From: Candidatus Babeliales bacterium
GTDB taxonomy: Bacteria > Babelota > Babeliae > Babelales > RVW-14
Length of the DNA stretch: 64,000 nt
Direction: 5' to 3'
NCBI GenBank assembly: GCA_041671765.1
Contig: JBAZAX010000002.1
Span: 3,609 to 67,608, forward strand
Made by a program: the position numbers and the translations under genes. Positions 7,182 to 51,146 of this stretch are shown here, one piece after another. The number at the start of each line of letters is the position of its first letter. The first letter of the stretch is position 1. Under the pieces are notes generated by a model that did no database searches, had not been told where the DNA came from, and was given only the letters and a program-made list of their open reading frames with translations.

Positions 7182-7318
7182 AATGCATTGGACCTTATAA
7201 AGATTAAGAACAATTTTGACAATTAAAACTATTTATTGTCCTGCAGAATAACCTAAATGCAAAAAAATGTTAATTTAAATTTAGAGTAATAGTATTGATT
7301 CTAAGAGCTAGCATAAAC

Positions 7319-8575: not shown

Positions 8576-8673
8576 TCCCCATATTCAAGCATCAGTGCAA
8601 TAAATTAATGCACTAGCTCAAGATTGCCAATATCTAATACAAATTGTCAATGAATTAATAATTACTATATCAA

Positions 8674-9828: not shown

Positions 9829-9833
9829 TGTTA

Positions 9834-10304: not shown

Positions 10305-10440
10305 TAAAAAACATTATAAATTTAGTTAAAAACTCCAAAAACGTACCCCCTTAGTGTTATGCTATTAAAAACGTTTTTTAAAAAAAATCAAGTTTTAAAA
10401 TTAAAAACAAAAAATTATATTTTAAAAATTGTATTACGCT

Positions 10441-10472
10441 GCTAATAAAATAAGCCGCTTACCGCGGCTTAT
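10441..10472 (-). terminator. Rho-independent terminator of ORF 10501-11169
   Basis: 9-bp stem ATAAGCCGC/GCGGCTTAT with a 5-nt loop, followed on the minus strand by 'TTTATTA'. Confidence 0.6.
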
Positions 10473-10490
10473 TTGTAAAATTTTTTTATT
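10444..10490. repeat. Direct repeat copy Y (intergenic; doubles as a terminator hairpin)
   Basis: 'AATAAAATAAGCCGCTTACCGCGGCTTATTTGTAAAATTTTTTTATT'. Confidence 0.8.
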
Positions 10491-10500
10491 TAACTACTTT

Positions 10501-11169
10501 TCATGCATGTAAAATTTCTACAGTTCCATCACCAAAAAGCCTAACCATCTTACCATCAACAACTCTAACTTCAGCGCCATCTCTTATTATTTGACTTAAA
10601 ATCAAACAAAAGCCAGGCAACACAAATTGGAAAAGACTTTTTACAGATGAAGCTTCTTCGTATTCGCTTTTCTGCTCAAAAAATCTATTTTCATATTTGC
10701 TTAACAAATTCACTTCAAGCCAACACCATAATAAGTTTTGACGATTGTCATGTATTGCATCTTCATCAATCCCATAAATGTCTCCGACGCCATATCCAAG
10801 CTGTAATAATTGTGAAAGTAAAAAATACATGAATTTTTTATATTCCAAATAGGAGCATTCCATAGCAGAATGCGTAACCCCGCTAGCTGTTGTCACAATA
10901 GCGACTGAAGGATTAAAAGAGTCTACATATCGCTTATAAGCCACTTTAAAATCTTCTTTTAATTTTTCTGCTAAAACATGATTTTGATCAAGTTTTTTTT
11001 TCAAAACATCCGCTAAATCTAATTTAGGCCCATCTTGTTCTGGCAAAGGAGAAAAAAATCTCTCAACGCCACCATCGGGCATAGGTAACTTTGTACCAAC
11101 TTTTTCATCATGACCTCCATATAAATTCAACGACAAAAACACAACAGCAGGTGCTATTAACCTTTTCAT
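10501..11169 (-). CDS. Hypothetical secreted protein
   Basis: 222-aa ORF with signal-like 'LIAPAVVFLSLNLYG', followed by a hairpin terminator at 10441-10472. Confidence 0.55.
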   Translation of the reverse strand: MKRLIAPAVVFLSLNLYGGHDEKVGTKLPMPDGGVERFFSPLPEQDGPKLDLADVLKKKLDQNHVLAEKLKEDFKVAYKRYVDSFNPSVAIVTTASGVTHSAMECSYLEYKKFMYFLLSQLLQLGYGVGDIYGIDEDAIHDNRQNLLWCWLEVNLLSKYENRFFEQKSEYEEASSVKSLFQFVLPGFCLILSQIIRDGAEVRVVDGKMVRLFGDGTVEILHA

Positions 11170-11342: not shown

Positions 11343-11717
11343 ATGAAAAAATCAGATAAAAATATTACTATTCAAAACTTAAAAGATATTGCAAAAAAAT
11401 TTAGAGATGACCGAGATTGGGCTCAATTTCACAGCCCAAAAGAATTAGCAATCGACATGTCGATTGAAACAGGTGAACTCCTAGAACTTTTCTTATGGAA
11501 AAGCAAAGAAGAAATAGCAGAAAAGCTAATTTCTGATACAAACTTTAAACAAAATGTTTCAGATGAACTTGCAGATGTTGTACACGCATGCCTAGCGTTT
11601 GCCAACTCAGCAGATATAGATCTTGCATCTGCCGTGATAACAAAAATTGAAAAAACTGCACAAAAATATCCAATTGAAAAAGCCAAAGGGCAGACCAAAA
11701 AATACACTGAGCTTTAG
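11343..11717 (+). CDS. MazG-like nucleotide pyrophosphohydrolase (dCTPase-like)
   Basis: 'FRDDRDWAQFHSPKELAIDMSIETGELLELFLWK' and 'ELADVVHACLAFAN', the MazG-type acidic helix pair. 124 aa. RBS 'GAAGGTG' upstream. Confidence 0.75.
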   Translation: MKKSDKNITIQNLKDIAKKFRDDRDWAQFHSPKELAIDMSIETGELLELFLWKSKEEIAEKLISDTNFKQNVSDELADVVHACLAFANSADIDLASAVITKIEKTAQKYPIEKAKGQTKKYTEL

Positions 11718-11758
11718 GTCAAATATTTGGATCACAAATTTTAATCGATTGGATAGTA

Positions 11759-12742
11759 ATGACAAAAAGAACAGTCTTGGTTGTTGGCGGCGCCGGTTAC
11801 ATCGGATCACACGCATGCTGGCTTTTACACGAACAGGGTTACGAAGTTGTAATTCTGGACGCATTATTACACAATCAAAAATTTACCCATAGCTGGGCAA
11901 AACTTATAAAAGGCGACTTTGCAGATCAAAAACTACTCAAAGCCATTTTTACTAATTACAAAATAGATACCGTAATGCATTTTGCAGCATTTATCGAAGT
12001 TGGTGAGTCAGTAAAAAAACCAAAAGATTTTTATAATAACAACGTAACTAAAACATTAACGTTGCTTGATACTATGCTTGAATATAACGTCAAAAAATTT
12101 ATATTCTCTTCGAGCTGCGCCGTCTATGGCGTACCACAAAAACTTCCACTTGATGAAGCGCATCCACTGGCACCAATTAATCCTTATGGCAAAAATAAAC
12201 TAACAATTGAATTTGTTTTACAAGACTACCACACGGCATATAATTTAAACTATGTATCATTACGTTATTTCAACGCAGCGGGGGCACACTTTGAACAAGG
12301 TCTAGGCGAGCAACACTCCCCAGAAACACATGTAATTCCACTGCTAATAAGAGCAGCAATGCAAGACAAAGAATTTTTTATCTTTGGCGATAATTATCCA
12401 ACACATGATGGCACATGCGTAAGAGACTACGTACATGTTCTTGATATTGCCCAAGCACACATATTGGCGTACGACTACCTAGAAAAGCACGGAAAATCAA
12501 ATAGCTTCAATCTCGGCTCACAAAATGGTAATACAATTAAAGAATTAATTAAACAAATTGAACAAATTTGTAAAAAGAAAATCAAAACCAAATATTGGCC
12601 AAGAAGAGAAGGAGATGTGCCTATTTTAGTTGCAAATTCAAATAAAGCGCAACAAGAACTTGGCTGGGAAGCAAAGCTCTCAGATCTAGAAAATATTTTA
12701 AAAAGCGCTTATGAATGGGAACTAATACTTAAAAAAATGTAA
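11759..12742 (+). CDS. galE: UDP-glucose 4-epimerase
   Basis: 'VLVVGGAGYIGSH' Rossmann motif, 'SSSCAVYG' and catalytic 'YGKNKL' (YxxxK). 327 aa. Confidence 0.9.
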   Translation: MTKRTVLVVGGAGYIGSHACWLLHEQGYEVVILDALLHNQKFTHSWAKLIKGDFADQKLLKAIFTNYKIDTVMHFAAFIEVGESVKKPKDFYNNNVTKTLTLLDTMLEYNVKKFIFSSSCAVYGVPQKLPLDEAHPLAPINPYGKNKLTIEFVLQDYHTAYNLNYVSLRYFNAAGAHFEQGLGEQHSPETHVIPLLIRAAMQDKEFFIFGDNYPTHDGTCVRDYVHVLDIAQAHILAYDYLEKHGKSNSFNLGSQNGNTIKELIKQIEQICKKKIKTKYWPRREGDVPILVANSNKAQQELGWEAKLSDLENILKSAYEWELILKKM

Positions 12743-32353: not shown

Positions 32354-33559
32354 CTAGCCTATTGAATACGCCAAATTAAATATCGGCAAATAGATCATCC
32401 AAATTAAAATACCGGTTATTAAACCTACAGTAATCAACAAGACAGGTTGAAAGAGTGTGGTTAAAATAAGTACAAAACGCCTAAGTTCTTCCTGGAATGA
32501 TTCGGTCGCTCTGCCTAAAACATCGGCCAATGCTCCCGTCTGCTCTCCAACATTTATCAGCGCAACAAGGGTTGCCTGTCTATAAAAACTGGGCAGCAAT
32601 GCAATAGAATCAGACAATGTTCTCCCACGTGTTATATTATCAATGGCATTATTCACATTGCTCCTCAAGTACCCGTTATTCATTGAATCCCGAGCACATA
32701 CAACAGCATCTTTCAATGGAATTCCTGATTTTAGAAGAACAGTTAACGCCTGCAGAAAATGCGTAAAATTTGAAAGCTCAACCAAGTTTTTAACATATGG
32801 AATTGAAATAAAAAGCCAGTCTTTGAACCTTTTTACCCGATTTTTGCCCAGCAAAAACATACCCCCAAAAAATCCCGCAACTAATGTTATTAATGCTGCA
32901 GCTCCCCGCCAAGAACGCAAAAATTTGCTAACCCAGATTATTCTTTTCGTAGCAGTCGGCAGTTGCTTGCCTATAGAGCTAAAAAATATTTCGAACTGCG
33001 GCACAACAAGTATTAAAATTACTACTACAATCAATAACGCAAAAAAGACTGTAACAATCGGCATAAGAGCAGCACTGTACAAATCCTTTCTCAACTGTTG
33101 ATCTTTTTTTATGTGCAGTGAAATTTGAGCAAGCACAAAGCTTAATTGTCCACTACGTAGCCCAACTTCAATCATTTGAGTTATAAAATCATTAAATATT
33201 TTTTTATGCTTTGAAAGTGCAACTGCCAAACTATTCCCATTTTGCAAATCTATTCTTATACACCCCAAAATATCGCGCAGTTTATTGTTATGCTCCTGCT
33301 GTTCAACAGTTTTAATTGCACTCAATAAATCAACTCCTCCATCTAGCAACATGGCCATCTGATCAAAAAAGTTTATAAAATCATACTGAGACAAACGCCT
33401 GCTAATCTGCCACTGTTTTTTATCCTCAATGCGGCAGCTTAATAGCGCAACACCATTATTCAAAAGCTGGTTTTTTAAAGCGTCTTGATTATCCGCAAAT
33501 ACATTCCCTTTAACTTGATTTCCAACAACATCAATCCCCTTCCATAAAAATTTTGGCAT
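32354..33559 (-). CDS. Type II secretion / type IV pilus platform protein (GspF/PilC family)
   Basis: 401 aa with two repeats of the T2SS-F-type segment ('MAMLLDGGVDLLSAIK' and 'LTVLLKSGIPLKDAV') and 3-4 TM helices. Confidence 0.8.
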   Translation of the reverse strand: MPKFLWKGIDVVGNQVKGNVFADNQDALKNQLLNNGVALLSCRIEDKKQWQISRRLSQYDFINFFDQMAMLLDGGVDLLSAIKTVEQQEHNNKLRDILGCIRIDLQNGNSLAVALSKHKKIFNDFITQMIEVGLRSGQLSFVLAQISLHIKKDQQLRKDLYSAALMPIVTVFFALLIVVVILILVVPQFEIFFSSIGKQLPTATKRIIWVSKFLRSWRGAAALITLVAGFFGGMFLLGKNRVKRFKDWLFISIPYVKNLVELSNFTHFLQALTVLLKSGIPLKDAVVCARDSMNNGYLRSNVNNAIDNITRGRTLSDSIALLPSFYRQATLVALINVGEQTGALADVLGRATESFQEELRRFVLILTTLFQPVLLITVGLITGILIWMIYLPIFNLAYSIG

Positions 33560-37628: not shown

Positions 37629-40277
37629 ATGACAAAACTTAACAATTTTAAAGTATTTAAACACGTATTACCCAACGGCCTTACAATTTTAGTCAAACCA
37701 CAGCATACCATACCTAGAGTAGAATCACACCTCTGGTACAATGTCGGATCAAAAGATGAAGGGCAAGGAGAACAAGGAATAACCCATCTGATCGAACATA
37801 TGCTGTTCAAAGGCACTAAAAATCTTTCCGAATCGGATATAAATTTGATTACACACAAATTATCCGGAATTTCCAATGCATTCACTTCACACGATGCAAC
37901 CTGCTATACATTTCGCTTCCCCAGCAACGTGTGGCAAGAGTCATTAGCACTTTTTGCAGAATGTATGCAGAATGCTACATTTGATCCACAAACGCTTGCT
38001 TCTGAACTTAAAGCCGTTATTGAAGAATTTAGGCTATATCAGGACGACTATCAGGGATTGGTTGTTGAAAAAATGATTGAGGCACTCTGGCCACAACACC
38101 CATACCGAACGCCAGTTCTTGGACTCAAACAAGACATATGCAACATAGGGCAGGAAAGATTACTTGAGTATTACAAAAAGCACTATCACCCGGCCAATGC
38201 TACCTTAGTCGTAGTTGGAGATGTTCAACCAAATGAGGTATTCAAACTGGCAGAAACACATTTTGGTAAAATTCCAGGCAAGCCGAATTACACAAAACAT
38301 AAATTTTTATTTGAGCCGGATATTCAACGTAAAACCATTCAACTGTTCAGAGACATTCAGGTTCCTTGGTGTTGCTACTTTTTTGAAATTCCTGGACTAC
38401 GGGATGGCCAAAACTATATTTTTGACGCCGCATCACTTCTGCTTGGCGGCGGGAAAAGTTCCAGATTACACAAAAAACTGGTTGAACAAACAGAAATAGC
38501 CGTAGAAGTTGCCTGCTCGATTTATGAATTTTTTGATCGCGGACTTTTTGCAATCACTGTTTATCCAAAAAGTATGTCTGATATCGCACAAATAGAACAA
38601 ATCATAAATCTTGAAATTTTAGAGTTACAAAAAAAATTGATTGCAGATTGGGAGATGGAATCAGTTAAAAAACGTGCCCAAGTTGATTTTACCACCCTTC
38701 TTGAAGACACTGAAAAGCAGGCAGCTATGATAGGCAATCTTTATGTTGCAACAAAAGATGAATCTGCTTTTGAAAAATATATGGAAAACATCGAAAAACT
38801 GGATAAGAAACAGATTCAAAACTTTTTCATAGAATATTTTAGCCCTGCAACATTACACGCAGGATATTTATACCCAATGCTTGAGCTGGACAAACCAAAA
38901 TTTCATAAATTACAAACAGAAGCAGACAAGCAAGAGGCAAAGCTTTTGGAAAAACTTATTCGCTCCACGCCGGTTGAAGGAGGAAAATGGGTTACCAAAG
39001 TTAATGAGAGCAAACTACAAAAATTTAGTTATCCAAAACTAAAAAGCTTCAAACTGGATAATGGCCTAGTCGTAACATTTTATAACAATCCAACAATTCC
39101 AAGCATTAGCGCAATTTTGAATTTTAAAGCCAGTAGCTTGTATGATGAAGACGGAGCTGAAGGCTGCTTTATTTTTTTAATAAGGTTAATGCTTGAAAAA
39201 ACGAAAAAATACGATGCAAAAAAAATGGCACAATTTTTGGAAACAAACGGAATTTACATTGGAAATCTTAACGACGTAATCACATTCAAATGTTTGAACC
39301 AAAATTTTGAACAAGCTCTTGATATTTTATATCAGATTTTAACTCAACCATCATTTGATGCTCAAACAATTTCGAAAATTAAACATCAAGCAATTAGCGA
39401 ATTAAAAGAGTTTTGGGATACACCGCTTGAATTTATTGAACAGGTAACTCGTGAACATATTTATCAAAACCATCCATACAGTAAAAATCCGGCCGGCAAT
39501 CTTAAAAGCGTTCCCAATTTAACTGCAGCTGACTTAAAAAAAAGCTTCAAGAAATATATTTCACCTGTAAACACAAATTTAATAATCGTTGGAGATTTAA
39601 GCAATATTGATCTGGAAAAAACTGTAAAAAAACATCTTGGCACATGGAGTGGCCTAGAAATACCAGACTTAGAGTTCCCTGCAATTATTTTACCGAAAGA
39701 TACCGAAAAACACATAAATTCAAACCGTGACCAAACCGTAATTACAATTGCGGCACCGTCTGTTTCTAGAAAATCGCCGGAATACAACCACCTTGCAATT
39801 TTAGATGTGATATTAACGGGAGGACCCGGATTCTCTTCTAACTCAAGATTGTTTGATTTACGCGAAAAATATGGGCTATTTTACGCTATCGGAGGTTCTC
39901 TTGTGTATGGAGCAAAAGAAGAACCTGGGTTAATGCTCATAAAAACATTGGTAAGTCATGACAAAGTAGAAAAAGCAAAAAAATTAATACTTGCATCAAT
40001 TAATGATTTAGGGCAGAATGGAATTATTCAGGATGAATTTGAAATGGCCAAAAACATGATCCTATCGAGCTTAGTTGAGAATTTTGAGAGTAACATGCAA
40101 ACTGCCAGCGCCTTTCTTTTTTTACAGAAATTTAAATTAGATATAAATTTATTTGACAAAATGGGGGATACTTTCTCTATAATAAAGATAGATGAAGTAA
40201 ATAAAGTTGCAAAAAAGTTTTGTCGAAGTAGTTGTTTTTCTTTTATTACGGTTGGTAGGGCTAGACCGAATCGATAG
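37629..40277 (+). CDS. M16-family zinc peptidase, double-unit (PqqL-like) form
   Basis: Inverted zinc motif HxxEH in 'GITHLIEHMLFKGT' in the first unit. A second M16-like half follows ('LDNGLVVTFYNNP'). 882 aa. Confidence 0.85.
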   Translation: MTKLNNFKVFKHVLPNGLTILVKPQHTIPRVESHLWYNVGSKDEGQGEQGITHLIEHMLFKGTKNLSESDINLITHKLSGISNAFTSHDATCYTFRFPSNVWQESLALFAECMQNATFDPQTLASELKAVIEEFRLYQDDYQGLVVEKMIEALWPQHPYRTPVLGLKQDICNIGQERLLEYYKKHYHPANATLVVVGDVQPNEVFKLAETHFGKIPGKPNYTKHKFLFEPDIQRKTIQLFRDIQVPWCCYFFEIPGLRDGQNYIFDAASLLLGGGKSSRLHKKLVEQTEIAVEVACSIYEFFDRGLFAITVYPKSMSDIAQIEQIINLEILELQKKLIADWEMESVKKRAQVDFTTLLEDTEKQAAMIGNLYVATKDESAFEKYMENIEKLDKKQIQNFFIEYFSPATLHAGYLYPMLELDKPKFHKLQTEADKQEAKLLEKLIRSTPVEGGKWVTKVNESKLQKFSYPKLKSFKLDNGLVVTFYNNPTIPSISAILNFKASSLYDEDGAEGCFIFLIRLMLEKTKKYDAKKMAQFLETNGIYIGNLNDVITFKCLNQNFEQALDILYQILTQPSFDAQTISKIKHQAISELKEFWDTPLEFIEQVTREHIYQNHPYSKNPAGNLKSVPNLTAADLKKSFKKYISPVNTNLIIVGDLSNIDLEKTVKKHLGTWSGLEIPDLEFPAIILPKDTEKHINSNRDQTVITIAAPSVSRKSPEYNHLAILDVILTGGPGFSSNSRLFDLREKYGLFYAIGGSLVYGAKEEPGLMLIKTLVSHDKVEKAKKLILASINDLGQNGIIQDEFEMAKNMILSSLVENFESNMQTASAFLFLQKFKLDINLFDKMGDTFSIIKIDEVNKVAKKFCRSSCFSFITVGRARPNR

Positions 40278-40302
40278 CCCCAAAGGAAGTAAGGAGAATA
40301 GC

Positions 40303-40452
40303 ATGGCAGTCAAGAAAAAAGCAAAAAAGGCAGCTAAGAAGGTTGTCAAAAAAGTTGCCAAGAAAAAGGTAGCTAAGAAGGCAGCTAAGAAGGTTGTCAA
40401 AAAAGTTGCCAAAAAGGCAGCTAAAAAAGTCAGCATGAAACTTGTCAAGTAA
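40303..40452 (+). CDS. Lysine/alanine-rich histone-H1-like small basic protein
   Basis: ATG 40303 is preceded by 'AAGGAG' (40291-40296). 49 aa: 'MAVKKKAKKAAKKVVKKVAKKKVAKKAAKKVVKKVAKKAAKKVSMKLVK'. Followed by a hairpin and T-run terminator. Confidence 0.65.
   Translation: MAVKKKAKKAAKKVVKKVAKKKVAKKAAKKVVKKVAKKAAKKVSMKLVK
40330..40412. repeat. 51-bp tandem duplication inside the histone-like gene
   Basis: 'GCAGCTAAGAAGGTTGTCAAAAAAGTTGCCAA' occurs at 40330-40361 and again at 40381-40412. Confidence 0.85.
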
Positions 40453-40594: not shown

Positions 40595-41098
40595 ATGACT
40601 CGTGCAAATAGTTTTTCTAAGACATTGATAATGGGTGGGGTATTTACAGTTATTGCTTTGCTAGGACTTACATTTTGGTACTTCAAATTTGCAAGCAAAC
40701 CTGCCATTCAACAAACACTTGCCATCATCAAACCTGACGCCGTAGCAGCTGGAAACAGTGGTAAGATCATTGATAAAATTGAACAAAGCGGATTCAAGAT
40801 TATTGCAATGAAAAAAACTGAATTAACAAAAGAAAAAGCAGAAGAATTTTATGCCATACATAAAGAAAAACCTTTCTTCGGCGAACTTGTAAGCTTCATG
40901 ATCAGCGGCCCAATTGTTGTTCTTGTTCTTGAAAAAGAAAACGCTATTGAAGAGTGGCGCAAGCTCATGGGCAAAGCAGAGATTGAAGGAACATTACGCA
41001 ACTTGTTCGGAACAAGTGTTACCAAGAATGCGGTTCACGGTTCTGATGCTCCTGAAACAGCAAAAGTCGAAATTAAACAGTTCTTTCCAGAGCTTTAA
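40595..41098 (+). CDS. ndk: Nucleoside diphosphate kinase with N-terminal transmembrane extension
   Basis: 'TLAIIKPDAV', 'GPIVVLVLE' and 'NAVHGSD' (catalytic His). About 38 extra N-terminal residues contain 'GGVFTVIALLGLTFWYF'. Confidence 0.85.
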   Translation: MTRANSFSKTLIMGGVFTVIALLGLTFWYFKFASKPAIQQTLAIIKPDAVAAGNSGKIIDKIEQSGFKIIAMKKTELTKEKAEEFYAIHKEKPFFGELVSFMISGPIVVLVLEKENAIEEWRKLMGKAEIEGTLRNLFGTSVTKNAVHGSDAPETAKVEIKQFFPEL

Positions 41099-41115
41099 AA
41101 TTTAGATTTTTATAT

Positions 41116-41170
41116 AAAAAAAAGAGGCAGATGATTTGTAAAAAATCATCCGCCTCTTTTTTTTATTTTT
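41116..41170. terminator. Bidirectional terminator between convergent ndk and the coiled-coil gene
   Basis: 13-bp stem GAGGCAGATGATT/AATCATCCGCCTC (one mismatch), flanked by an A-run on the left and a T-run on the right. Confidence 0.7.
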
Positions 41171-41197: not shown

Positions 41198-42925
41198 TTA
41201 ACTAAGTTTGTCTTTTAATAAAACTAATTTACCCTGCAACAATTCTGTCTTAACTTTCAATTCTTGCAAAGATGTTTTCAAGCTAGAAAGCGAACCTTTC
41301 AGAGCTTTGGTTGCATGATCTTCTCTCGCTGGTAGTGGAGGCGGTGCATCCTCGCCTTTTCCATCTACATCTGGTTTGTGCTTACCAGGTTCTCTTTTAG
41401 GCAATTCTGGCCCTGGCTCGGGTCTTGGGACGACGGCCGGTGCCTTTTCTTTTTCTTTAATCTTTTCACCTAAAAACCTAATGGAATCATTGAGAGAGTC
41501 TCGTCCTTGGCCAAACAACTCTCTTTCAATTGTTTCTTTCTCGCGAACATCTTTAATAAAAGTCGCCATTCCCATTTCTTGATATGCATGTATCAACTTA
41601 ATTAAACTCTCAAATTTAACAGAACCTAGTTGATAACCAGTCTTTTGCTGACTACCAATAATACCCGATTTTGTAACCAACTGGTGAAAGCTGGAAACTC
41701 CAGTTAATGAAGCTTTTAAAGCATTAAACACTTGGTTCTTTTGAATTGTGTTAGCTTCACGTAAAACGTCTGCTATTAAATCAAACATCTGGATAAAAAG
41801 ACCAAAAGTTGCATCGGATACGTAGTCGTTTAAGGATTTAAGCAATCCTGGAAAATTTTTATCCTTATATGTGATTTCTGCGCTACTTATGTCAGTCTGA
41901 AGAGATTTAAAATTTTTTGCAGCCACATCTTCTTTAATTTTTTCAAGCAAAGCTTTTACAAAATCCAAGCCCTTAACTGAAGCTGCAAGTTGTTTTTTTG
42001 CATCAGCTGCCATTGCCTGAGCTTGTTGCGCAAGATATGCTTGATGCTCAGCTTTAGCCTCAGCTTCCCGCCTTGCTGCCTCTGCCTCATCTGCTTCTTT
42101 TTGCAACCTTACTCGGTCCTCTTCAGCAGCCTTTTCTGCAGCCTCTTTAGCTTTTCGCGCATCTTCTTCTGCGCGTCTTCGGGACTCCTCAGCCTTTCTT
42201 TGCTCTTCCTCGGCGGCAAGCATCGCCTTCGCCTCTTCTTCACGTTTTGTTTGTTCTGCTCGTTGACGATCCGCTAGCTCTTTTTCAAGTTCTTTGCGTA
42301 CTTTATTCTTTGACTTTTTTATAGCAGCTTTTAGCAACCGTTCAATAACATTAGGTATCGTTGTATCTGTTGACTTCATTAATCTTACCAGATCAATTAT
42401 CTTATCACTGTTCTGTGAATGATACTTAAATTGCAAAAGGCTTATGACCTGATCAAAATCCTTTGTCCATTCAATAAATTTACACAAAGGCAGAACAGCC
42501 ATATCTACTAATATTCCCGACATAAAGTTTAAATTATTTAGACACAAATCAACATTTTTCTTAAATACAGTATCATAATCTATCTCAGCACTACTTTCAT
42601 CAATAGCTTTAATCAAATCTTCCGCATTTCTAATTTCTTTCAAAATAAGGTCATTTGGGTCAGTTACAAGTCTATGAAGACGAGAATAAACCGATTGATC
42701 ATTTAATGAACGCTGAACTGCATTAATAAAAAAGACATGAAAAGAATCTACAGATATTCCATGCAGCAAAGGCAAGCCTGCCCCCACACTCGGTTGCATC
42801 ATAATACGATGCATTTCTTGATATAAATCATTTAAGCTCTCTGCTGCTGTCATTCCACTCAAGTACCCTTGCGAGAATACAAAAATGCCCCAAAATAATA
42901 CTACCCTAGTAATTCGATTAACCAT
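41198..42925 (-). CDS. Secreted coiled-coil protein with E/A/R/K-rich core and Pro-rich segment
   Basis: Signal-like 'VVLFWGIFVFSQG', charged core 'EEQRKAEESRRRAEEDARKAKEAAEKAAEE' and 'PRPEPGPELPKREPG'. The C-terminal module is shared with the next ORF. Confidence 0.65.
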   Translation of the reverse strand: MVNRITRVVLFWGIFVFSQGYLSGMTAAESLNDLYQEMHRIMMQPSVGAGLPLLHGISVDSFHVFFINAVQRSLNDQSVYSRLHRLVTDPNDLILKEIRNAEDLIKAIDESSAEIDYDTVFKKNVDLCLNNLNFMSGILVDMAVLPLCKFIEWTKDFDQVISLLQFKYHSQNSDKIIDLVRLMKSTDTTIPNVIERLLKAAIKKSKNKVRKELEKELADRQRAEQTKREEEAKAMLAAEEEQRKAEESRRRAEEDARKAKEAAEKAAEEDRVRLQKEADEAEAARREAEAKAEHQAYLAQQAQAMAADAKKQLAASVKGLDFVKALLEKIKEDVAAKNFKSLQTDISSAEITYKDKNFPGLLKSLNDYVSDATFGLFIQMFDLIADVLREANTIQKNQVFNALKASLTGVSSFHQLVTKSGIIGSQQKTGYQLGSVKFESLIKLIHAYQEMGMATFIKDVREKETIERELFGQGRDSLNDSIRFLGEKIKEKEKAPAVVPRPEPGPELPKREPGKHKPDVDGKGEDAPPPLPAREDHATKALKGSLSSLKTSLQELKVKTELLQGKLVLLKDKLS

Positions 42926-42951
42926 AAATTCTCCTTTATTTTTTAATAAAA

Positions 42952-45900
42952 CTACGCACCAAGCTCTTGATTTAATAATGATAATTTACGATGCAATATA
43001 AACATTTTATTTTTTAGTTCCAGCAAAGACCTTTTTAAATTAAAAAGCGAAGATTTTAAGGCTTTCGCGCCAGGGCTTTCGACCGCTTGTTGACGTTGCA
43101 AAACACTTATCAAAGATTCTAAACTTTCCATTCTATGATACAGGTAGTTAATCCAATACCATTTACTATTTATATTTGCACGTATGTATTCGGACAACTT
43201 TTGCTCCTCGCTACTCCAAGCTGAGACAATGCTGTCACGGTTACGAATTCTATCAAATAGATTGAATAATTTCTGTATTTGAGCAATATCTTTTTCAGTC
43301 AAAGCCTTTTTATATAATTTTTCCAAACCCTTTAAAAAAGTAGTTCCTAAATCTTCACTCGAGAAAATAACTTTCTCCCCTCGTTTATATTTTTCAACAT
43401 TTTCATCATAAGTTTTTACCATAAAATCCAAAAGTTCGCCAAGCGGTTGCTCTGATTCAATAGTTGATTTAAACCTAAGCTCTTCAGCCATTCTTTCTCG
43501 CTCAGCTCTTTGTTGCTCTTCAGCAATTCGAGCGGCCTCTTTTTGTTCTACTATCTTTTTCTGCAAAAACATTCCCCGATCCTCATCAATTCCAAGCATA
43601 CACGCCGCAAAATCTTCCTCATCGGGGATAAACTCTTTTAGTTTTGGCTCTAATTTACTTTGAATCAAAATGCTTATTTGGGATATTATTTTCCAGGCAT
43701 TTGTAAATGCAATAAATTTTTCGATATTGCCATCCAAAATTTTCCCATCTGTATCTAATTCGTAAAATTCTGGATTTATTTTGTAACTATTTGCAGGTCC
43801 GGGAATTTCAAGAGGAGCCTTTATGTCTTTTTGCTGCTTAATAACTACATATGCACTTCGTGAAAGGGCTTCGAGCTGATCCCGTGTTACATCTTTCAAT
43901 ATTTGATCTAAAACAAATTCATCGACTGTTGCGAGCTGAACAACCTGCTCTTCAGAAGTTTTATCCGCAGCACCTATAATTTGAGGAAGTGTTGATATAG
44001 ATTGTTCTGTTTTTTCACTTATAAAGTTTAATTTATCACGCTTAGCTTTAAGTTTAAGATAAGCATCTTTATTTCCAGCTTCAACAAATTCCCCCGCTTG
44101 CCATTTTTGCCGAGCTTCCTGAAAACTATCAGGCTTCTGCCCTCGTAACTTATCCAGCTCTTTTTCGATTTCTTCTTTCTTTATTTGCTCGTCATCTGGC
44201 AACTCTTGGCCCAGATCCATCAACTCATCATCTTTTGCAGACAACTTATCAAATTCTTCCTTTAATCTGGCAAAACGGTCTTTATCGCTTGGTTGTACAA
44301 AATCCCCATTTAACCATTTTTTCATTTCAGCTTGGCATGCTTTCATATCTGGAGCTTTTCCAATCATTAAATTTATTGATTCTCTCAAAGCTTCTTCTTG
44401 CGCCTCTACCTCTTGCTTCAGTGCATCAATCTGTTCTTTTTTATATTTTTTTAATAATTCGCCTATTGCGTCTTGCTGCATTTTTAGTAATTGATCTAAA
44501 GATATAGCCATTACCGTTTCATGAAGAGGTTCTTCCCATTTAACTGGTATGACGACTGTATCTGCAAAATCAGCTTTTCTGCCTATATATTGTAATGTCC
44601 CAAACCTGCGAGCACTTAAAAGAGCATCTTCCTGTTTATCAAACACCTCCATTTCTGTTCTGTTTTTCGTAGCACGGTAATAACGTGCCTTATTGCCAAT
44701 AGTTTGTAGCTGTTTTAAAATATCCGGCTCTACATCCATACGCAAATCTGCATCTAAGCGATTTAATAGTTGACGGTTATTACGAATTAATGGAATGATT
44801 TTTGATATTGGCATTCCATGCCACAAACACAATTCAATTTGCTCAAAAAATGATTTTTTTTCACCTTCAGACCAGAAATGAACCCTAGCTAGCGCATCAA
44901 ATAAAAACTTAAGTTTTGCCTTGACGCCAAGATGTTTTACCTCATCCTTCTTTGCAAGTATTTCCTCTAGCGAAGCCCCATATGCAATAGTTTCAAAAAC
45001 AATATCATCCGAATTATGCAAATACATATCCGCTTCTGTATAAGGCATATGCCCAGATGTCTCCCATGTTTTGCCTACTGATAAAAATGACACGAGATGA
45101 CATTCTTCAATTGTTGCTGGGTAAATAACCTCCTGATATTTGTTTGCTAAAAATTCTGCTTGCCGTTTTATCCCATCTTTAACAAATTGAGACATTTGAT
45201 CCAATTGCTCTTGAGTAAAATATATTTGACTTAATAAATTAAGCGTATTTTCAGCATCAAATTTTTTGTCTGGTGAAATGTGATTTCTTGCTGCCAAAGT
45301 TTGATGATATATTGCAGACAGGTAAGATAAATATATTGGGTGAAAACTATAATTATCATTTATGTATTTTATAAAATCTTCACTCAACGGATGTACACAG
45401 GCATCAATATAAATTCCACTTCTTTTGACCCCATCATATTCTCTTGCAATTCGACGCGGAGTTGCATCTATCTTCTCTTTCAAACACTTACAACAAGCTA
45501 CATGGGCAGGATTGCATGGTAGGAAAAATGGCATATGATCTGTACCATTTAAAAACTCATCGTCCCCGGCTGCCTTCTTTATTTTGCACACCAAATAAAC
45601 TGATGAATACCAGCTTTTCAATGCATCATAAAGTTTCTTTTCCAAATCATCAATCTCGCGACCTTCCGCTTCGGCAGTTTCCCAGGCCTTTATTTTTGCA
45701 GGAAGATCAATTTTTAGTTTTTTTATTTCCGGAATAATCCACTTTTTTAGAGATTGGGTAGATGCGACGTCTTCTGTTAATTTTTTTACATCTAGCTCTT
45801 CTTGTCTAACGGTATCATTTAATTTTAACAGTTCCCTTTCCCCATCGGATATGGCAGATTTTATATCTAAAAATCTTCGCTCTAAACCAGTTAACATTGC

Positions 45901-47217
45901 ATCAAACTTCAAATTGATCTCTTTAACTTGAGGCTGATATTCTTTTTCTATCTCTTTTTTAATTCTTTCTTCTATTGCCCTTAAATTGGATTGAATTATT
46001 GCTAAGTCTGCTGGTAAAATATCCGGCCATGTTCTTGCCGATTCATAAAATTCTTTTTGTTCTAAATATTCCTTATCTTCTTTTATTTTTTTTATAAGAG
46101 CATCCTGTATCAACCTTTCAACTTCTTGTCTTTTACGAATATTAATAGACTCAATATCTCGCTTCACCTGATCAATTTGTTGCGTTTGCTTTAATGCCAT
46201 ATCTCTTTTTCTAATTATTTCGCTTGCATGATCACGCAGGCGCTGCTGCAAGCCTACAAGTTCTCGTTCCCTCTGCAAAATCTCATCTCTATTTTCTTCT
46301 TTAAATTTGCGCCACAGAGCTTTTATCTCCGGCGTATTTTCCAAATATTTAAGTTTTACACTGTTTTCAGCAAATTCTTTATTCAAATTAATTTGGAAGT
46401 CTACCATTGATATCCAATCATCCACAGATTGGGTGGAAACTCTTTTTGATGGATCTGCAACTTCAATTATCCACTTTTGATATATGTCATAACATATTGG
46501 GAAATAATATGAGCCAAGCGACCTTCCATTCTCCGCGTCAGCAACCACAATTTCTAATTCTTCTGAATCCTGACCTGTTTTACGGACAAGTATAGCTGTC
46601 CAGTGGCCTACATTTATGGCAAATTTGGTATCGGATTGAGATATAACAAGCATGTAACTTAATTCACCACTAATAATTTTTTGGATAAAATCTTGAATAT
46701 CCTCCTTTTGGCCTTTTATTGGTGTAAAATTATTTGATCCAGGCCCCATTCCCCAAAGAATTGTTTTATTTTTGATTTCAGGTGGATAAAGTTTATTAAC
46801 AACTTCATTTATGTCATATTGCTTTCCAAAAACTCTTGGAAACTTTCCCCTCAGATCTTGGAAAAAGCTTGCTAAATCAGGTTGATTTGAAAAGGCCCCT
46901 GTCAATTCTGAGTAAGTTGCATAAGGTTTTTTTTCTAAAACTTCCCCCATTCGCAATACATAAAAAATTGTTGCATCTTCACAAGTTATACTCGAATTTA
47001 CAGAAAATCGTTCAGGGGCGTTAAGATAATAAATATATGGAGATTTTCTTTTATCAAAACCCTTTAACCCATCAACGCGATTAGACTTAATCGATTCATA
47101 TACCCCAAAAATATCAGCGTCTTTATTCACCATACAAAAAAGGAATTGCCGCCCAAACAACAACAAAAGAATGGAAGCAATTATGTAAACACGATATTTC
47201 TTATAAAGTATTTTCAT
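42952..47217 (-). CDS. Very large membrane-anchored coiled-coil protein (about 1420 aa)
   Basis: Uninterrupted ORF. I prefer ATG 47215-47217 ('MKILYKKYRVYIIASILLLLF'), which has 'AAGGAA' 7 nt upstream, over the start at 47277. Long heptad-like charged regions. Confidence 0.7.
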   Translation of the reverse strand: MKILYKKYRVYIIASILLLLFGRQFLFCMVNKDADIFGVYESIKSNRVDGLKGFDKRKSPYIYYLNAPERFSVNSSITCEDATIFYVLRMGEVLEKKPYATYSELTGAFSNQPDLASFFQDLRGKFPRVFGKQYDINEVVNKLYPPEIKNKTILWGMGPGSNNFTPIKGQKEDIQDFIQKIISGELSYMLVISQSDTKFAINVGHWTAILVRKTGQDSEELEIVVADAENGRSLGSYYFPICYDIYQKWIIEVADPSKRVSTQSVDDWISMVDFQINLNKEFAENSVKLKYLENTPEIKALWRKFKEENRDEILQRERELVGLQQRLRDHASEIIRKRDMALKQTQQIDQVKRDIESINIRKRQEVERLIQDALIKKIKEDKEYLEQKEFYESARTWPDILPADLAIIQSNLRAIEERIKKEIEKEYQPQVKEINLKFDAMLTGLERRFLDIKSAISDGERELLKLNDTVRQEELDVKKLTEDVASTQSLKKWIIPEIKKLKIDLPAKIKAWETAEAEGREIDDLEKKLYDALKSWYSSVYLVCKIKKAAGDDEFLNGTDHMPFFLPCNPAHVACCKCLKEKIDATPRRIAREYDGVKRSGIYIDACVHPLSEDFIKYINDNYSFHPIYLSYLSAIYHQTLAARNHISPDKKFDAENTLNLLSQIYFTQEQLDQMSQFVKDGIKRQAEFLANKYQEVIYPATIEECHLVSFLSVGKTWETSGHMPYTEADMYLHNSDDIVFETIAYGASLEEILAKKDEVKHLGVKAKLKFLFDALARVHFWSEGEKKSFFEQIELCLWHGMPISKIIPLIRNNRQLLNRLDADLRMDVEPDILKQLQTIGNKARYYRATKNRTEMEVFDKQEDALLSARRFGTLQYIGRKADFADTVVIPVKWEEPLHETVMAISLDQLLKMQQDAIGELLKKYKKEQIDALKQEVEAQEEALRESINLMIGKAPDMKACQAEMKKWLNGDFVQPSDKDRFARLKEEFDKLSAKDDELMDLGQELPDDEQIKKEEIEKELDKLRGQKPDSFQEARQKWQAGEFVEAGNKDAYLKLKAKRDKLNFISEKTEQSISTLPQIIGAADKTSEEQVVQLATVDEFVLDQILKDVTRDQLEALSRSAYVVIKQQKDIKAPLEIPGPANSYKINPEFYELDTDGKILDGNIEKFIAFTNAWKIISQISILIQSKLEPKLKEFIPDEEDFAACMLGIDEDRGMFLQKKIVEQKEAARIAEEQQRAERERMAEELRFKSTIESEQPLGELLDFMVKTYDENVEKYKRGEKVIFSSEDLGTTFLKGLEKLYKKALTEKDIAQIQKLFNLFDRIRNRDSIVSAWSSEEQKLSEYIRANINSKWYWINYLYHRMESLESLISVLQRQQAVESPGAKALKSSLFNLKRSLLELKNKMFILHRKLSLLNQELGA

Positions 47218-47344
47218 ATCTAAGTTCCTTAATAACCATTTATAAATTAGAAATATAACTCTGCAGAGATATACCATTTTTAAAAAATAAAATGGAATGA
47301 TTCATTTAAAAAGGTTTGAAGTCTTTGCTAATTGCAAAAAATTA

Positions 47345-47374
47345 TAAAAAAGGCGCAGTATTTTTCACTGCGCC
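47345..47374 (-). terminator. Rho-independent terminator of clpB
   Basis: 8-bp GC-rich stem GGCGCAGT/ACTGCGCC, followed by a T-run on the minus strand (A-run 47346-47351 on plus). Confidence 0.7.
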
Positions 47375-47410
47375 CAAGCTATTATTAAATTATTTTAATA
47401 TAAATAACTA

Positions 47411-49969
47411 TTAACTGATCACAATCTGATCTTTTTTAGCATCGATTATGAAAAGTTTCTTGTCAGGATTTTTAAGAATCTGGATAGAAAGCGGGCTAAC
47501 AACATAATGCTGCACAGCTCGTTTTAAAGGCCTGGCTCCAAACTCTTTTTGGTACCCAAGCTCACCCAAAAACTCAATTGCACCGCTTGTAACATCAAGC
47601 TCTATGTTTTTCTCTTTTAACCGATCACTTAGATAAGCAAGCTGAATGCGTACTATCTGCTCGATATCTTTTTGATTCAAAGATTTAAAGAACACAACCT
47701 CGTCAATTCTATTAAGAATCTCCGGCCGGAAGTATTTAAGAAGTAAGCCATCAATTTCTTTGCGCACTTTCTCAGTAATATCACCTGCAGCTAAAATCAA
47801 GTCTGAACCAATGTTTGAAGTCATAATAATTATGCAATTTTTGAATGACACGGTGCGGCCTTGCGAATCAGTCAGATGGCCTTCATCAAGAATCTGTAAA
47901 AAAATGTTAAATACATCGGGGTGAGCTTTTTCAATCTCATCAAAAAGCACCACGCTGTAAGGATTTTTGCGCACGGCTTCCGTCAATTGGCCACCTTCTT
48001 CGTAACCAACATAACCCGGAGGCGCGCCAATCAGACGCGCAACGGCATGTTTTTCCATATACTCGGACATATCAATACGAATCATCTTGCGTTCATCGTT
48101 AAAAAGATAATCTGCCAAAGTTTTGGCAACTTCTGTTTTGCCAACACCGGTTGGCCCAAGAAACAGAAATGAACCGATTGGTTTGTTTGGATCAGCAATT
48201 CCCGACCTGTGAATTCGAATGGTATCAGAGATTTTGGTAATCGCCTCATCTTGGCCTATAACTCGTTTGTGCAACTCACTTTCCATCTCGATAAGTTTTT
48301 GGCTTTCATCGGATTTTAGTTTTTCAACAGGAACATGCAGCCAACGAGAAAGCACAAGTGCTATGTCATCTTCATCAACCTCTTCTTTGATCAAATGTGT
48401 TTTGAGCTTTTTAAGCTTATCCTGTTCCTGAGCTAATTTTTTTTCTAGCTCGACAATTTTGCCATATTTAATTTTTGAGGCTTTTGCAAAATCACCCTCA
48501 CGTTCAGCCTGTGAAAATTCAACTTTTGCAGCGTCAATCTGCTCTTTTATTTTTTGCATAACTTCAAGAGGTTTCCGCTCAGATTGCCACTGTTCTGATT
48601 TAATTCTATGAGATTCTTTGAGTTCTGATAGTTCTTTTTCTAAATCTTTCAAGCGCGTCTTCGAGGTTTCGTCCTTCTCTTTTCCCAAAGCAACTTTTTC
48701 AATCTCAAGCTGTGTTATACGACGTTGTAACTGATCAATCTCTTCGGGTTTTGAGTCAATCGCCATTTTAACCATTGAAGCGGCTTCGTCAATTAAATCA
48801 ATTGCTTTGTCAGGTAAGAATCTATCAGAAATCATTCGTGATGAAAGCTGTACGGCTTTAACAAGAGCAGAATCTTTGATTCTGATTCCATGATGCAACT
48901 CATAACGTTCTTTCAAACCACGCAAGATTGAGATTGCATCTTCATCTGTCGGTTCTTCGATTAAAACCTTTTGGAACCTACGCTCAAGAGCTGCATCTTT
49001 TTCAATATATTTTTTGTATTCAACAATTGTTGTTGCACCGACACAGTGTAACATGCCACGCGCAAGTGCAGGTTTTAGCAAATTTGAGGCATCCATGCCA
49101 CCATTTGTAGCCCCGGCCCCTACAAGCATATGCAATTCATCGATGAAAAGAATTATGCCTTCCGACTCTTTTTCAATAGCCTCTAAAATGGATTTCAAAC
49201 GCTCTTCAAATTCACCACGATATTTCGTTCCTGCTATCAATGATCCAAGGTCAAGCGATAATATTCTGCGATTTTTAAGACTCTCCGGAACGTCATTGTC
49301 AATAATACGCTGCGCGATACCTTCAACAATTGCAGTTTTACCAACGCCGGGGTCACCGACAAGCACAGGATTATTTTTCGTACGACGTGATAAAATTTGA
49401 ACCACCCGCCTGATTTCATCATTGCGACCAATGACAGGATCAAGCTTGCCATCACGGGCAAGTTTAGTTAGATCCTTGCAGTATTTTTCAAGAACCTGAT
49501 AACCACTCTCCGCATTCTGATTTTTCACCGCTTCCCCTCCCCGCATATTTTTAATCCATTCTAAAACTTTCTGGTCTGTAAAACCATTTTGCTTAAAGTA
49601 CTGTTGTATTTGACTTGGTAATGTTAATGTTTTTGCAAATGCCAGTATACAAACATCCAGACTTATAAATTCATCGCCAAGACTTTTGGCCTCTTTTTCA
49701 CACTCACCTAAAAATTTTTGAAATGAATGATCTACTGAAATCTGTCCACCGGTAACTTTTGGCAAACGAGAAAGCTCTTGATCTACAATCACCCTTAATC
49801 TATCAATATCAAGACCGCATGAACGAAAACCTGATGCACAAAAATCGTTATTCAAAGCAGATGATAAAAGTTGAATTGGCGAAAATGTTGAATACTGTTC
49901 CTGAGTTGCTAACGTATATGCTTCTTGTAATAGCTCTGTGAAAGCATTTGTAAATTTTTCTGAATTCAT
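47411..49969 (-). CDS. clpB: Chaperone disaggregase ClpB
   Basis: Two AAA+ modules ('GDPGVGKTA' and 'GPTGVGKTE') separated by a long coiled-coil middle domain. I prefer start '[14 protein letters not shown]' at 49969, which removes the overlap with the upstream ORF. Confidence 0.9.
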
Positions 49970-50006
49970 GCAAAAACTCCCGAATTTTACCTGAATTATA
50001 AAAGAA

Positions 50007-51146
50007 TTAAGCCAGTTCTGAGAATTGCTCGCGTGGAATTGGAACATAACTTAGATGCAAAGATCGCCCCCAGGCTCTTAAAAAACTACGTAACCTGTAT
50101 GCTTTTGGCGTAGTAGAATTTCTAGGAAATGCCGGATCTATGCATAAAACGCACTGTTTTTCTTTATTCCATCCCACAACAACCATCAAATGCCCATTTG
50201 TGTATGAGGTGGCTCCACCACGTAACTTGCGAACACTAACGGCCACGGGAATTTTTTTGGAAAGATATTTATACAGATCATCAAAAAAGTTTAATCTCTC
50301 AACTCGAAAGAAAACATTTCCATAAGTTGCGTCATGTGCGGCTGCAACATTAAGCGGCCAATTTCCATAAATATTTAAGTACCCATTGTCATAAACTTTA
50401 TCTGCAAAATCAACCATATAACTGTTCAAATCATGTGAACAGTCACCGTAAAGTTTTTTATTGAAATAATTTACAATAATTCCGGTAGATGTTGGTGAAC
50501 ACAAATCTCGGTACCGTGGGTGATTTAGCACCATTTGAGACTGCCTTGGCACACCACTCACAATGACAGATGGAAGATTTGAAACGTAGGAATCACCCTT
50601 GAACTTTTTAACATTTGATAAACATGCAAATAGGGCTTTTAGATTTTTTGGATTTGCACCTTTTTGAAATACGACTTTTACCTTGAATGCTGTACCCAAC
50701 TGCCCTTTTTTTAATTCTACTTTAGAGTGCGTTGTGTGCACGTAACGGTTGAGCTTATTAACGAAGGTTCTTTGAGAACTGGCTCCCCACTCAGCCAAAC
50801 GCTGCCACCCAGCCCATGAAGAATGCTTTACATTAACCCAAAAAGTCATTTTCCCTGATTCAGGGCGCATCGCATTCCAGGATAAAATTAGTTCAGTAAA
50901 ATGAAAATTCGGCTCACATTCCCAAATAAAAAATTCTTGATCGGAATCAATTTCACCGTCAAAAATATATCTTGATACGGTTTTTGAAAATTTTTCATTA
51001 CTGACAGTTTGAGTTGAATCCAAATCTCTTCGTCGTTTTCTTCTTCCAGCAGTTACTGCATTTACATTCAAAAAATTAAACGCGAAGCACGTTATTAAAA
51101 ATAAAAAAATCCGCTTTTTAAATCCAATAAAAACCTTCATTAGCAT
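50007..51146 (-). CDS. Secreted papain-like cysteine peptidase (C39-like domain)
   Basis: Signal-like N-terminus. Candidate nucleophile 'DLCSPTSTGIIVNYF' and His 'NGHLMVVVGW' in the order and spacing seen in C39-like domains. Confidence 0.55.
   Translation of the reverse strand: MLMKVFIGFKKRIFLFLITCFAFNFLNVNAVTAGRRKRRRDLDSTQTVSNEKFSKTVSRYIFDGEIDSDQEFFIWECEPNFHFTELILSWNAMRPESGKMTFWVNVKHSSWAGWQRLAEWGASSQRTFVNKLNRYVHTTHSKVELKKGQLGTAFKVKVVFQKGANPKNLKALFACLSNVKKFKGDSYVSNLPSVIVSGVPRQSQMVLNHPRYRDLCSPTSTGIIVNYFNKKLYGDCSHDLNSYMVDFADKVYDNGYLNIYGNWPLNVAAAHDATYGNVFFRVERLNFFDDLYKYLSKKIPVAVSVRKLRGGATSYTNGHLMVVVGWNKEKQCVLCIDPAFPRNSTTPKAYRLRSFLRAWGRSLHLSYVPIPREQFSELA

Follow-up and report, generated by a model that had tools for sequence, protein, structure and literature searches.

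Why should two neighbouring bacterial genes, whose products are otherwise dissimilar, end in the same short, lysine-rich helix? The question is raised by a 64,000-nucleotide stretch of DNA (the window) from a Candidatus Babeliales bacterium (assembly GCA_041671765.1, contig JBAZAX010000002.1, positions 3,609 to 67,608), in which two minus-strand genes, here called A and B, lie side by side. The source organism is a member of the Dependentiae (TM6), and the characterised members of this phylum are obligate intracellular parasites of protists (PMC6561590). The common tail is a lineage-specific module of 33–38 residues, a five-heptad zipper that terminates the mature chain and is joined to it by a flexible linker, and its carriers form a repertoire of eukaryote-like proteins with predicted Sec signals in a Candidatus Babeliales clade. 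The tail may serve as a common docking or targeting handle for one acidic partner or an anionic membrane, a plausible, still tentative, reading of its chemistry.

The initial annotation described A and B as co-directional genes, 26 nt apart, whose products have a common C-terminal module and are dissimilar elsewhere, and this description was borne out, as were its coordinates and sequences. A BLASTP comparison of the two proteins returned a single significant segment, the C-terminal 43 residues (22/43 identical, E = 9e-5), with everything else at E > 0.9. Aligned without gaps, the tails are identical at 20 of 37 positions, compared to 11.1 ± 1.5 (maximum 18) in 50,000 shuffles that kept the leucine stripe. 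The B tail scores 40.3 bits against a profile of A-lineage tails only, compared to 3.6 ± 3.4 bits (maximum 24.4) for its shuffles, none of which, out of 5000, reaches the real score. Since heptad-preserving shuffles never attain the real value, the similarity does not reflect generic heptad composition. A chance resemblance of two generic coiled-coil ends, a concern that the initial annotation had itself raised, draws on the abundance of charged helices in both proteins. Against it stand both sets of shuffles (0/5000 and 0/50,000), the absence of any score for the tail profile in the other reading frames of the window, homology at the level of DNA with tails of other genomes and the existence of more than 20 family members; we regard it as vanishingly improbable.

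The two genes and their recognisable parts are the following (AF2, AlphaFold2; pLDDT, predicted local distance difference test).

41198–42925, minus strand: gene A, an open reading frame (ORF) of 575 residues with a signal-peptide-like N-terminus, all-helical body, Pro-rich linker and zipper tail.
42854–42925, minus strand: A residues 1–24, MVNRITRVVLFWGIFVFSQGYLSG, Sec-type signal-peptide-like on reading the sequence (maximum Kyte-Doolittle 12-residue window 2.04).
42014–42307, minus strand: A residues 207–304, a long E/A/R/K-rich helix (AF2 helices 207–270 and 276–304).
41312–41446, minus strand: A residues 494–538, the Pro-rich linker PRPEPGPELPKREPGKHKP...PPPLPAREDHA, predicted to be disordered (pLDDT < 50 over 494–537).
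41201–41311, minus strand: A residues 539–575, the tail, TKALKGSLSSLKTSLQELKVKTELLQGKLVLLKDKLS (lone AF2 helix 537–574).
42952–47217, minus strand: gene B, an ORF of 1421 residues with a signal-peptide-like N-terminus, Cys/His domain, coiled-coil stretches, RING-like cluster, duplicated unit and zipper tail.
47134–47217, minus strand: B residues 1–28, MKILYKKYRVYIIASILLLLFGRQFLFC, signal-peptide-like (maximum Kyte-Doolittle 12-residue window 2.95).
46318–47133, minus strand: B N-terminal domain with Cys79 (46981–46983) and His205-Trp206 (46603–46605), invariant across three homologues.
45484–45588, minus strand: B residues 544–578, a RING-like Cys/His cluster in which C544, C568, H572, C575 and C578 are conserved in the homologue alignment.
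44026–44397, minus strand: internal duplication of B, residues 941–993 and 1014–1064 (local alignment score 85, compared to 32 ± 5.7 for shuffles).
42955–43068, minus strand: B residues 1384–1421, the tail, AKALKSSLFNLKRSLLELKNKMFILHRKLSLLNQELGA (from BLASTP and profile score).

Both N-termini are basic and hydrophobic, the Pro-rich segment of A was located, and the internal duplication of B is genuine, all in keeping with the initial annotation. Its term "giant coiled-coil proteins" is overstated: long charged helices are indeed present in B, together with a Cys/His domain and a RING-like cluster, whereas A is a 575-residue, all-helical protein. Neither protein matches any Pfam family, and neither reaches the threshold of the USP family PF00443.

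The AF2 model of A, built from a three-sequence alignment, is all-alpha with a mean pLDDT of 63. Its tail helix, separated from the body by a disordered Pro-rich linker of 44 residues, has a pLDDT of 51–59, a level expected of an unpartnered helix. The A orthologues P0002 (48% identity) and P0003 (41%) retain the tail and the hydrophobic N-terminus, where the signal-peptide-like segment is conserved. The best-conserved 37-residue segment between A and P0002 is the tail itself (81% compared to 50% overall, rank 1 of 578). The E/A/R/K-rich helix has only sub-threshold matches to the ARGLU and TolA models. An assignment of A as TolA was rejected (TIGR02794, 11.7 bits against a cut-off of 59.45; PRK09510, 10.6 bits against 213; NCBIfam, E = 0.11 to 0.2), as was the JGI label "CheA", for which a supporting domain is absent. 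A conserved PPPLP/PPLPxRED motif closes the A-type linkers just before the tail (41312–41350 in the window, and P0002, P0003, P0006 and P0007). It resembles eukaryotic proline-rich short linear motifs (ligands of WW, SH3 and EVH1 domains) and is absent from the USP-type carriers.

B is 100% identical to an NCBI protein titled "MAG: hypothetical protein [Candidatus Babeliales bacterium]". An alternative in-frame ATG at 47277 would give 1441 residues; the added stretch aligns with intergenic DNA of a relative. Homologues are found at L001:7757-8236 (60% identity, truncated where the contig stops) and L008:4074-7631 (32% identity, 1185 residues, tail present). The N-terminal domain is possibly a papain-like or Ulp-like thiol protease, a tentative assignment from its invariant residues. 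The region of the HW motif gave one weak PDB match, to the ULP-protease-domain protein 7fiu_A (E = 0.83), and the AF2 single-sequence model of the domain (pLDDT 40) was too poor for a fold search. For the RING-like cluster, the L008 homologue has a sub-threshold match to zf-RING_5 (E = 0.004); in B itself, one Cys of a canonical RING, the second, is missing. The duplicated unit of B is present once in the L008 homologue.

Tails were aligned without gaps over 33–37 residues in 18 proteins, giving the consensus (TKALKxS)LxxLKxSLQELKxKxxxLQxKLxxLKxKL, which ends 0–5 residues before the stop codon. The module comprises 4.5 to 5 heptads with 3/4 spacing, with Leu at 74 of 98 a positions and 83 of 90 d positions. 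The flanking columns are dominated by Lys (g: K52, S24 and R4 of 90; e: K55, Q14, R9 and H5 of 90), only 2 of the 180 e/g positions are acidic, and the net charge is +3 to +8. The tails thus have the hydrophobic a/d positions over at least four heptads that define a coiled coil, which in A is modelled by AF2 as an uninterrupted helix, and the Lys/Arg at both e and g, with acidic residues excluded, that defines a K-coil. They are amphipathic, contain no hydrophobic run and end in ...KLS or ...LGA. A rule written for this pattern, applied to the window and the related contigs L001–L009 (~165 kb), found every tail and one other segment, in an MscS-like protein of L009.

No described module was found to be equivalent to the tail in Pfam, NCBIfam, PDB or the literature, and the system appears, as initially supposed, to be undescribed. 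The closest Pfam model is PF16526, the CLZ C-terminal leucine zipper of CNG channels, to which three related carriers score 15.8 to 18.3 bits (E = 0.003 to 0.018), below the gathering threshold of 26.7 bits. Against PDB, the tail profile matched only designed coiled coils (E ≥ 0.05), and the NCBIfam sorting-signal models gave no match to six carriers at E ≤ 1. A ubiquitin-interacting motif, checked by eye, was rejected: the acidic positions are missing, and the USP-type tails lack the Ala-x3-Ser heptad.

The tail proved to be widely distributed among related contigs. A profile of four tails searched against 1.84 billion representative proteins gave 14 matches at E ≤ 0.001, half of which are full-length and lie at the extreme C-terminus (A, B, P0002, P0003, P0006, P0007 and P0008); the remaining seven are partial, multi-stretch matches to repeat proteins. 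Contigs L006–L009 were added by one metagenome scan and one genome scan. When a hidden Markov model (HMM) of 12 tails was run over all fetched loci, further members came to light, with a total of ~19 C-terminal copies and 3 copies located ~7 residues past a signal peptide, in proteins of 407–421 residues. The initial proposal of a terminal amphipathic helix on otherwise unrelated cargo therefore holds across nine related contigs, and the outcome named at the outset as refuting it, a lack of additional carriers, did not occur. All of the carriers are on low-GC contigs, and two (B and one USP carrier) are labelled Candidatus Babeliales by NCBI. An A-type pattern scan over genome contigs found none, and a second scan found one locus, L009. 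No tail was found in the viral contigs scanned, nor any additional carrier in the extended flanks of the window's own contig population (L010–L014). A word-indexed protein search with an alignment of seven tails gave nothing at E ≤ 10, which probably reflects the limit of a word index for a 50-residue, low-complexity query.

The cargo is diverse. USP deubiquitinases are recognised by PF00443 with E = 1e-27 to 1e-45 (one weaker, E = 2e-9); five of them, in L003, L007 and L008, score 37.7 to 156 bits against a gathering threshold of 23.9. The other carriers are the 1185-residue B homologue, which has the invariant Cys79, His205-Trp206 and RING-like Cys/His cluster in common with B, A-type and P0006-type helical proteins, and a frameshifted giant protein in L005. 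Judged by sequence, 20 of 21 carriers have a basic and hydrophobic, signal-peptide-like N-terminus. The proteins with an N-terminal module contain a DFG-like string noticed by eye; Pfam is silent, and we do not claim that they are kinase-like.

Some of these contigs have features of their own. In L005, the giant tail-bearing gene (5990–10708) is broken by frameshifts and encodes three ~130-residue repeats and a pair, SGHG...SCFAGG, of caspase-like appearance to the eye, for which there is no Pfam match; a group II intron reverse transcriptase (11411–12724) follows, inserted ahead of ndk. A C-terminal fragment at L004:1-1368, just upstream of the tail-bearing gene, resembles a RING1-IBR-RING2 (RBR) E3 ligase with sub-threshold Pfam RING and IBR matches (E about 6e-4 to 8e-4), and has no tail. 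L009 (CAZMQG010000002.1) is titled "uncultured Pseudomonadota bacterium". Its gene order and 86–88% DNA identity to L017 fit contigs of the Babeliales type, and the depositor's label is probably wrong.

Is it the peptide or its DNA that has been maintained? At residues identical between two tails, codon identity was compared with the expectation from the codon usage of the window. Four USP-type tails of L015 give six pairs. In five of them, 16–19 of 33 residues are the same while codons agree no more often than chance predicts (z = 0.5 to 1.0); the sixth, a 138-residue protein against USP371, has a codon excess (z = 4.0). Paralogous tails have ~55% residue identity with synonymous sites at chance. 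Because most of them keep their residues while codons are at chance, the peptide, and not the DNA, is maintained, and the tail is under selection as an amino-acid sequence. The tails of A and B differ from this pattern, with the same codon at 14 of 18 identical residues, compared to 6.8 expected (z = 3.9). The B tail has 17 of 19 codons in common with the slot-gene tail of L004 (z = 4.8), and its DNA matches slot-gene tails elsewhere (74% to L004, 71% to L005); with the tail of the B homologue in L015, it agrees at 4 codons, which is the chance level (4.4 expected). Given this excess against A and L004 and its absence against the homologue, the B tail of the window is a mosaic that has exchanged sequence with the neighbouring slot-type tail.

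The tail genes occupy two loci at which cargo genes turn over fast between strains while the tail and linker are retained. Locus 1 runs from clpB through the tail gene or genes, which are convergent with ndk, to a small basic ORF and an M16 peptidase. Its contents are B then A in the window, an A orthologue then a B orthologue in L001, an A orthologue directly after clpB in L002 (a 2.6-kb contig that stops just past the gene), a single P0006-type gene in L003, L004 and L006, and the giant gene followed by the group II intron in L005. Between the window and L006, the flanks are 95.6% identical, the interval between 47347 and 41423 does not align, and homology is regained with the Pro-rich linker and tail. 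In L003 (GCA_043808975.1), B is precisely absent (L003:9940-10000 compared to window 42952–42974 and 47238–47260): the last 22 nt of B (NQKLGV*) are fused to the DNA that lies upstream of the B start in the window, with a TTAT(A/T)AAAT microhomology at the junction. The scar and the junction show that this lineage has lost B by deletion.

Locus 2 consists of a large mscS-like channel gene, an array of tail genes and brnQ-pheT-lspA (L015:3547-13410 and L017:356-4198). The two contigs are 98.9% identical in the downstream flank and 89.6% in the upstream flank, compared to arrays of three genes in L017 and six in L015, in which only the tail-coding segments align (75–84%). The first gene of each array encodes a 409–421-residue protein with the module directly after the signal peptide. 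Contigs with the window genes and contigs of the L017 type co-occur in the same three samples, and the window population therefore probably owns both loci.

The clpB neighbourhood of locus 1 is an insertion hotspot. In L003, a HepT/MNT toxin–antitoxin pair and a tail-bearing USP-like gene (413 residues) are inserted between the C39-like peptidase and clpB (3684–5832), and an AAA_14/DUF4143 gene between clpB and the slot gene (8550–9785).

This architecture could also be read at the level of DNA, with the 3' segment kept as a recombination handle for cassette exchange and the encoded peptide without function. At each of the two loci, homology between strains does break at the DNA of linker and tail or close to it, the codon excess between the A and B tails indicates gene conversion, and B was removed in L003 precisely between short repeats. 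A functionless peptide is, however, at odds with the randomised synonymous sites of most paralogous tails, which keep their residues (z near 0.5), and with heptad chemistry that is held in lineages whose DNA no longer aligns. We consider such a handle to be very improbable.

What, then, might the peptide do? Helices with Lys at both e and g mutually repel and prefer an acidic partner, as in the pairing rules of E-coil/K-coil and Fos/Jun zippers. Every tail has Lys/Arg on either side of its core and is positively charged overall (+3 to +8), so that tails should repel each other, which disfavours the A–B heterodimerisation handle that the initial annotation had offered as one of three roles. Since K-rich e/g helices seek an acidic partner, docking is the role that we tentatively prefer, and anchoring or docking is also the best fit among those three. 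The carriers would leave the cytoplasm, putatively by Sec. The free basic amphipathic helix would then bind one common acidic target, for which an acidic coiled-coil receptor and an anionic membrane (bacterial, vesicle or host) are candidates. Different enzymes, namely the USP deubiquitinases, the B-type protein with its Cys/His and RING-like regions and the A-type helical proteins, would in this way be gathered at one place, and A and B would not be paired through their tails.

Several points weigh against docking. No acidic partner coil was found: a mirror-image E-coil rule picked out zero segments in the window and L001–L009 (~165 kb, with no complete genome among them). By the HeliQuest lipid-binding criterion (D = 0.944*muH + 0.33*z, above 1.34), seven tails have values on both sides of the threshold (D = 0.98 to 1.77), and a designed K-coil has 1.05. 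Lys at e and g is no strict bar to trimers, and an export-signal role would account equally well for the strictly terminal position.

The tails could instead zip into homotrimers, dimers or mixed bundles, A with B included, and so assemble multi-enzyme complexes. Their heptad pattern is flawless, and both core positions, a and d, are Leu. Work on GCN4 core variants reportedly shows that an all-Leu core of this kind favours trimers, and there is the weak, sub-threshold resemblance to the trimeric CLZ zipper of PF16526. Several carriers are also encoded side by side and are probably co-expressed. Self-association of this type is nevertheless opposed by the Lys/Arg found at both core-flanking positions in nearly every heptad of every tail. 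Designed K-coils with a like basic e/g pattern are unfolded alone, and the conserved surface residues of the SLQELK motif suggest more than a bare core. On balance, we think self-association unlikely.

The third reading is that of an export or translocation signal: a dedicated machine, such as a type II or type IV-pilus-like apparatus or one for vesicle loading, would read the terminal helix after Sec or, in a variant, the membrane-active helix would itself carry cargo across the outer or vacuolar membrane. The module is strictly terminal on diverse cargo that needs the host cytosol, as USP enzymes need ubiquitin. A T2SS-F gene is present in the window (32354–33559), and the size, charge and amphipathicity of the tail are, from general knowledge, like those of cationic helical membrane-active peptides. 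The phylum has no reported effector-injection system, and its effectors are reported to rely on Sec and possibly on outer-membrane vesicles (PMC6561590). On the other side, the module occurs at either end of the mature chain, which is unusual for a machine-read signal, no known sorting-signal model matches it, and nearby signal-peptide proteins, such as the ankyrin proteins, lack the tail. No secretion gene is linked to either locus, the neighbours being housekeeping genes without a pair of ABC transporter and membrane fusion protein (MFP). The C-terminal sorting or secretion signal proposed initially is weakened because three proteins carry the module directly after the signal peptide; its more general form survives as a rival, and not a probable one. 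A linear, transferable signal that routes Sec-exported effectors from the periplasm or across the host vacuole membrane we rate a shade lower still. If true, bacteria would have a further class of signal for secretion or cell entry, new to science, and the effector repertoire of these parasites would be marked by a sequence tag.

A and B are surrounded by housekeeping genes in a window of ~35% G+C, with B then A lying on the minus strand between clpB (47411–50047) and the convergent ndk (40595–41098). Three further elements accompany the pair.

47341–47375, minus strand: terminator hairpin of clpB overlapping a promoter-like site (10/12 matches, consensus scan only) upstream of B.
42926–42951, minus strand: the 26-nt spacer between B and A, with an AGGAG ribosome-binding site (within AAAGGAG) and no terminator.
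41114–41168, no strand assigned: strong bidirectional terminator hairpin between A and ndk (RNA fold −31.3 kcal/mol, with an A-run and a T-run at its sides).

B and A are probably co-transcribed, and the hairpin between A and ndk is kept in L003, L004 and L006.

Other genes nearby deserve mention. The ndk product (167 residues, plus strand) has an additional N-terminal hydrophobic segment, MTRANSFSKTLIMGGVFTVIALLGLTFWYFKF, ahead of the NDK fold, and may be membrane-anchored or exported; the L005 copy has 148 residues. A tiny ORF rich in Lys and Ala, MAVKKKAKKAAKKVVKKVAKKK... (40306–40452, plus strand, within the ORF 40207–40452), is situated between the genes of the M16 peptidase and NDK; it has a basic, histone-H1-like look and is called as a gene of 47–53 residues at the same site in L003, L004 and L005. 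Directly upstream of clpB in every related contig is a signal-peptide-bearing protein similar to Peptidase_C39_2 (50007–51146, minus strand, E = 1.2e-14), which we read as a further exported papain-like protease; it has no tail. Two WD40 beta-propeller genes (431 and 442 residues; 4512–7181, minus strand) adjoin mevalonate-pathway genes (HMG-CoA reductase, HMG-CoA synthase, thiolase and GHMP kinase). The Pfam families of this group were taken from the matching gene order of L013/L014, in which only the 382-residue GHMP kinase is confirmed to be identical to that of the window.

Dependentiae are widespread obligate parasites of protists, and how they deliver or organise host-manipulating proteins is the problem that the tail addresses; we know of no effector-delivery system or signal in this phylum. 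The tail provides a short, searchable tag on USP deubiquitinases, RING-like and other putatively exported proteins that outlasts the reshuffling of cargo between near-identical strains. It could be used for listing candidate effectors in metagenomes, for fishing for a common partner or membrane and for testing whether a simple helix targets or exports proteins in a lineage without known injection machinery. Both loci are also clear cases of strain-level effector turnover in an uncultured phylum.

Comparison with known systems places the tail near several of them. The designed E-coil/K-coil pairs and the Fos/Jun zippers are likewise built of four to five heptads, with aliphatic residues at a and d and Lys at both e and g. 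In contrast, the tail is natural, is located at the end of putatively exported bacterial proteins and has an all-Leu core rather than Val/Leu or Ile/Leu. Dockerins of the cohesin–dockerin system are likewise short terminal modules, usually C- and sometimes N-terminal, behind a Pro/Thr-type linker on many unrelated secreted enzymes, and attachment of the cargo to one scaffold is the role that the tail would have in common with them. They are built from a duplicated Ca-binding loop-helix motif with no sequence or fold relation to the tail, and a scaffold with receptor modules is known for the cellulosome and none for the tail, so that the analogy is functional only.

The C-terminal sorting domains (the C-terminal domain, CTD, of type IX secretion, T9SS; LPXTG; PEP-CTERM; GlyGly-CTERM) are also lineage-restricted tags on Sec-exported proteins, often after a low-complexity linker. 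The tail differs in having no signature motif, no trans-membrane helix with a basic cluster, no beta-sandwich and, additionally, N-terminal copies. It was rejected as a member of any of them, as no curated model matches and the tail is amphipathic. A C-terminal signal for type I secretion was also rejected, given the signal-peptide-like N-termini of 20 of the 21 carriers and neighbourhoods without an ABC transporter/MFP pair. So was a Dot/Icm (type IVB secretion, T4BSS) signal, which has an acidic E-block and a short polar C-terminus on proteins free of Sec signals, whereas the tails bear a strong positive charge and N-terminal signals are present on their carriers.

Polymorphic toxin and effector loci (Rhs; contact-dependent inhibition, CDI; MIX/FIX of type VI secretion, T6SS) similarly combine a constant marker with rapidly exchanged cargo in hotspot arrays flanked by housekeeping genes. 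Here, a 35-residue coiled coil encoded at the 3' end serves as the marker, the cargo consists of eukaryote-like host-manipulation enzymes rather than toxins, and neither immunity genes nor a secretion system are linked. The ubiquitin effectors of Legionella, Chlamydia and amoeba symbionts resemble the carriers in their eukaryote-like USP (PF00443), RING-like and RBR-like domains and in the obligate intracellular lineage. Those effectors (USP/OTU/CE-clan enzymes and RING/U-box/RBR mimics) bear type III (T3SS) or type IV secretion (T4SS) signals and no Sec signal peptide, and none, to our knowledge, shares a terminal zipper. For delivery in the Dependentiae, the Chromulinavorax paper describes only Sec signals and possible vesicles (PMC6561590). 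TolA and TonB, which span the envelope, can be compared with protein A only: in each, a hydrophobic stretch at the N-terminus is followed by a long helix rich in Ala, Glu and Lys, and a Pro-rich spacer then connects to a small module for interaction at the C-terminus. A has no TolA or TonB C-terminal domain, however, and the same tail is found on USP enzymes, which have no periplasmic substrate. By the tests run, the tail belongs to none of the families compared; its nearest functional counterparts are the dockerins, the sorting domains and the markers of polymorphic loci, and, in its chemistry, it is closest to a K-coil.

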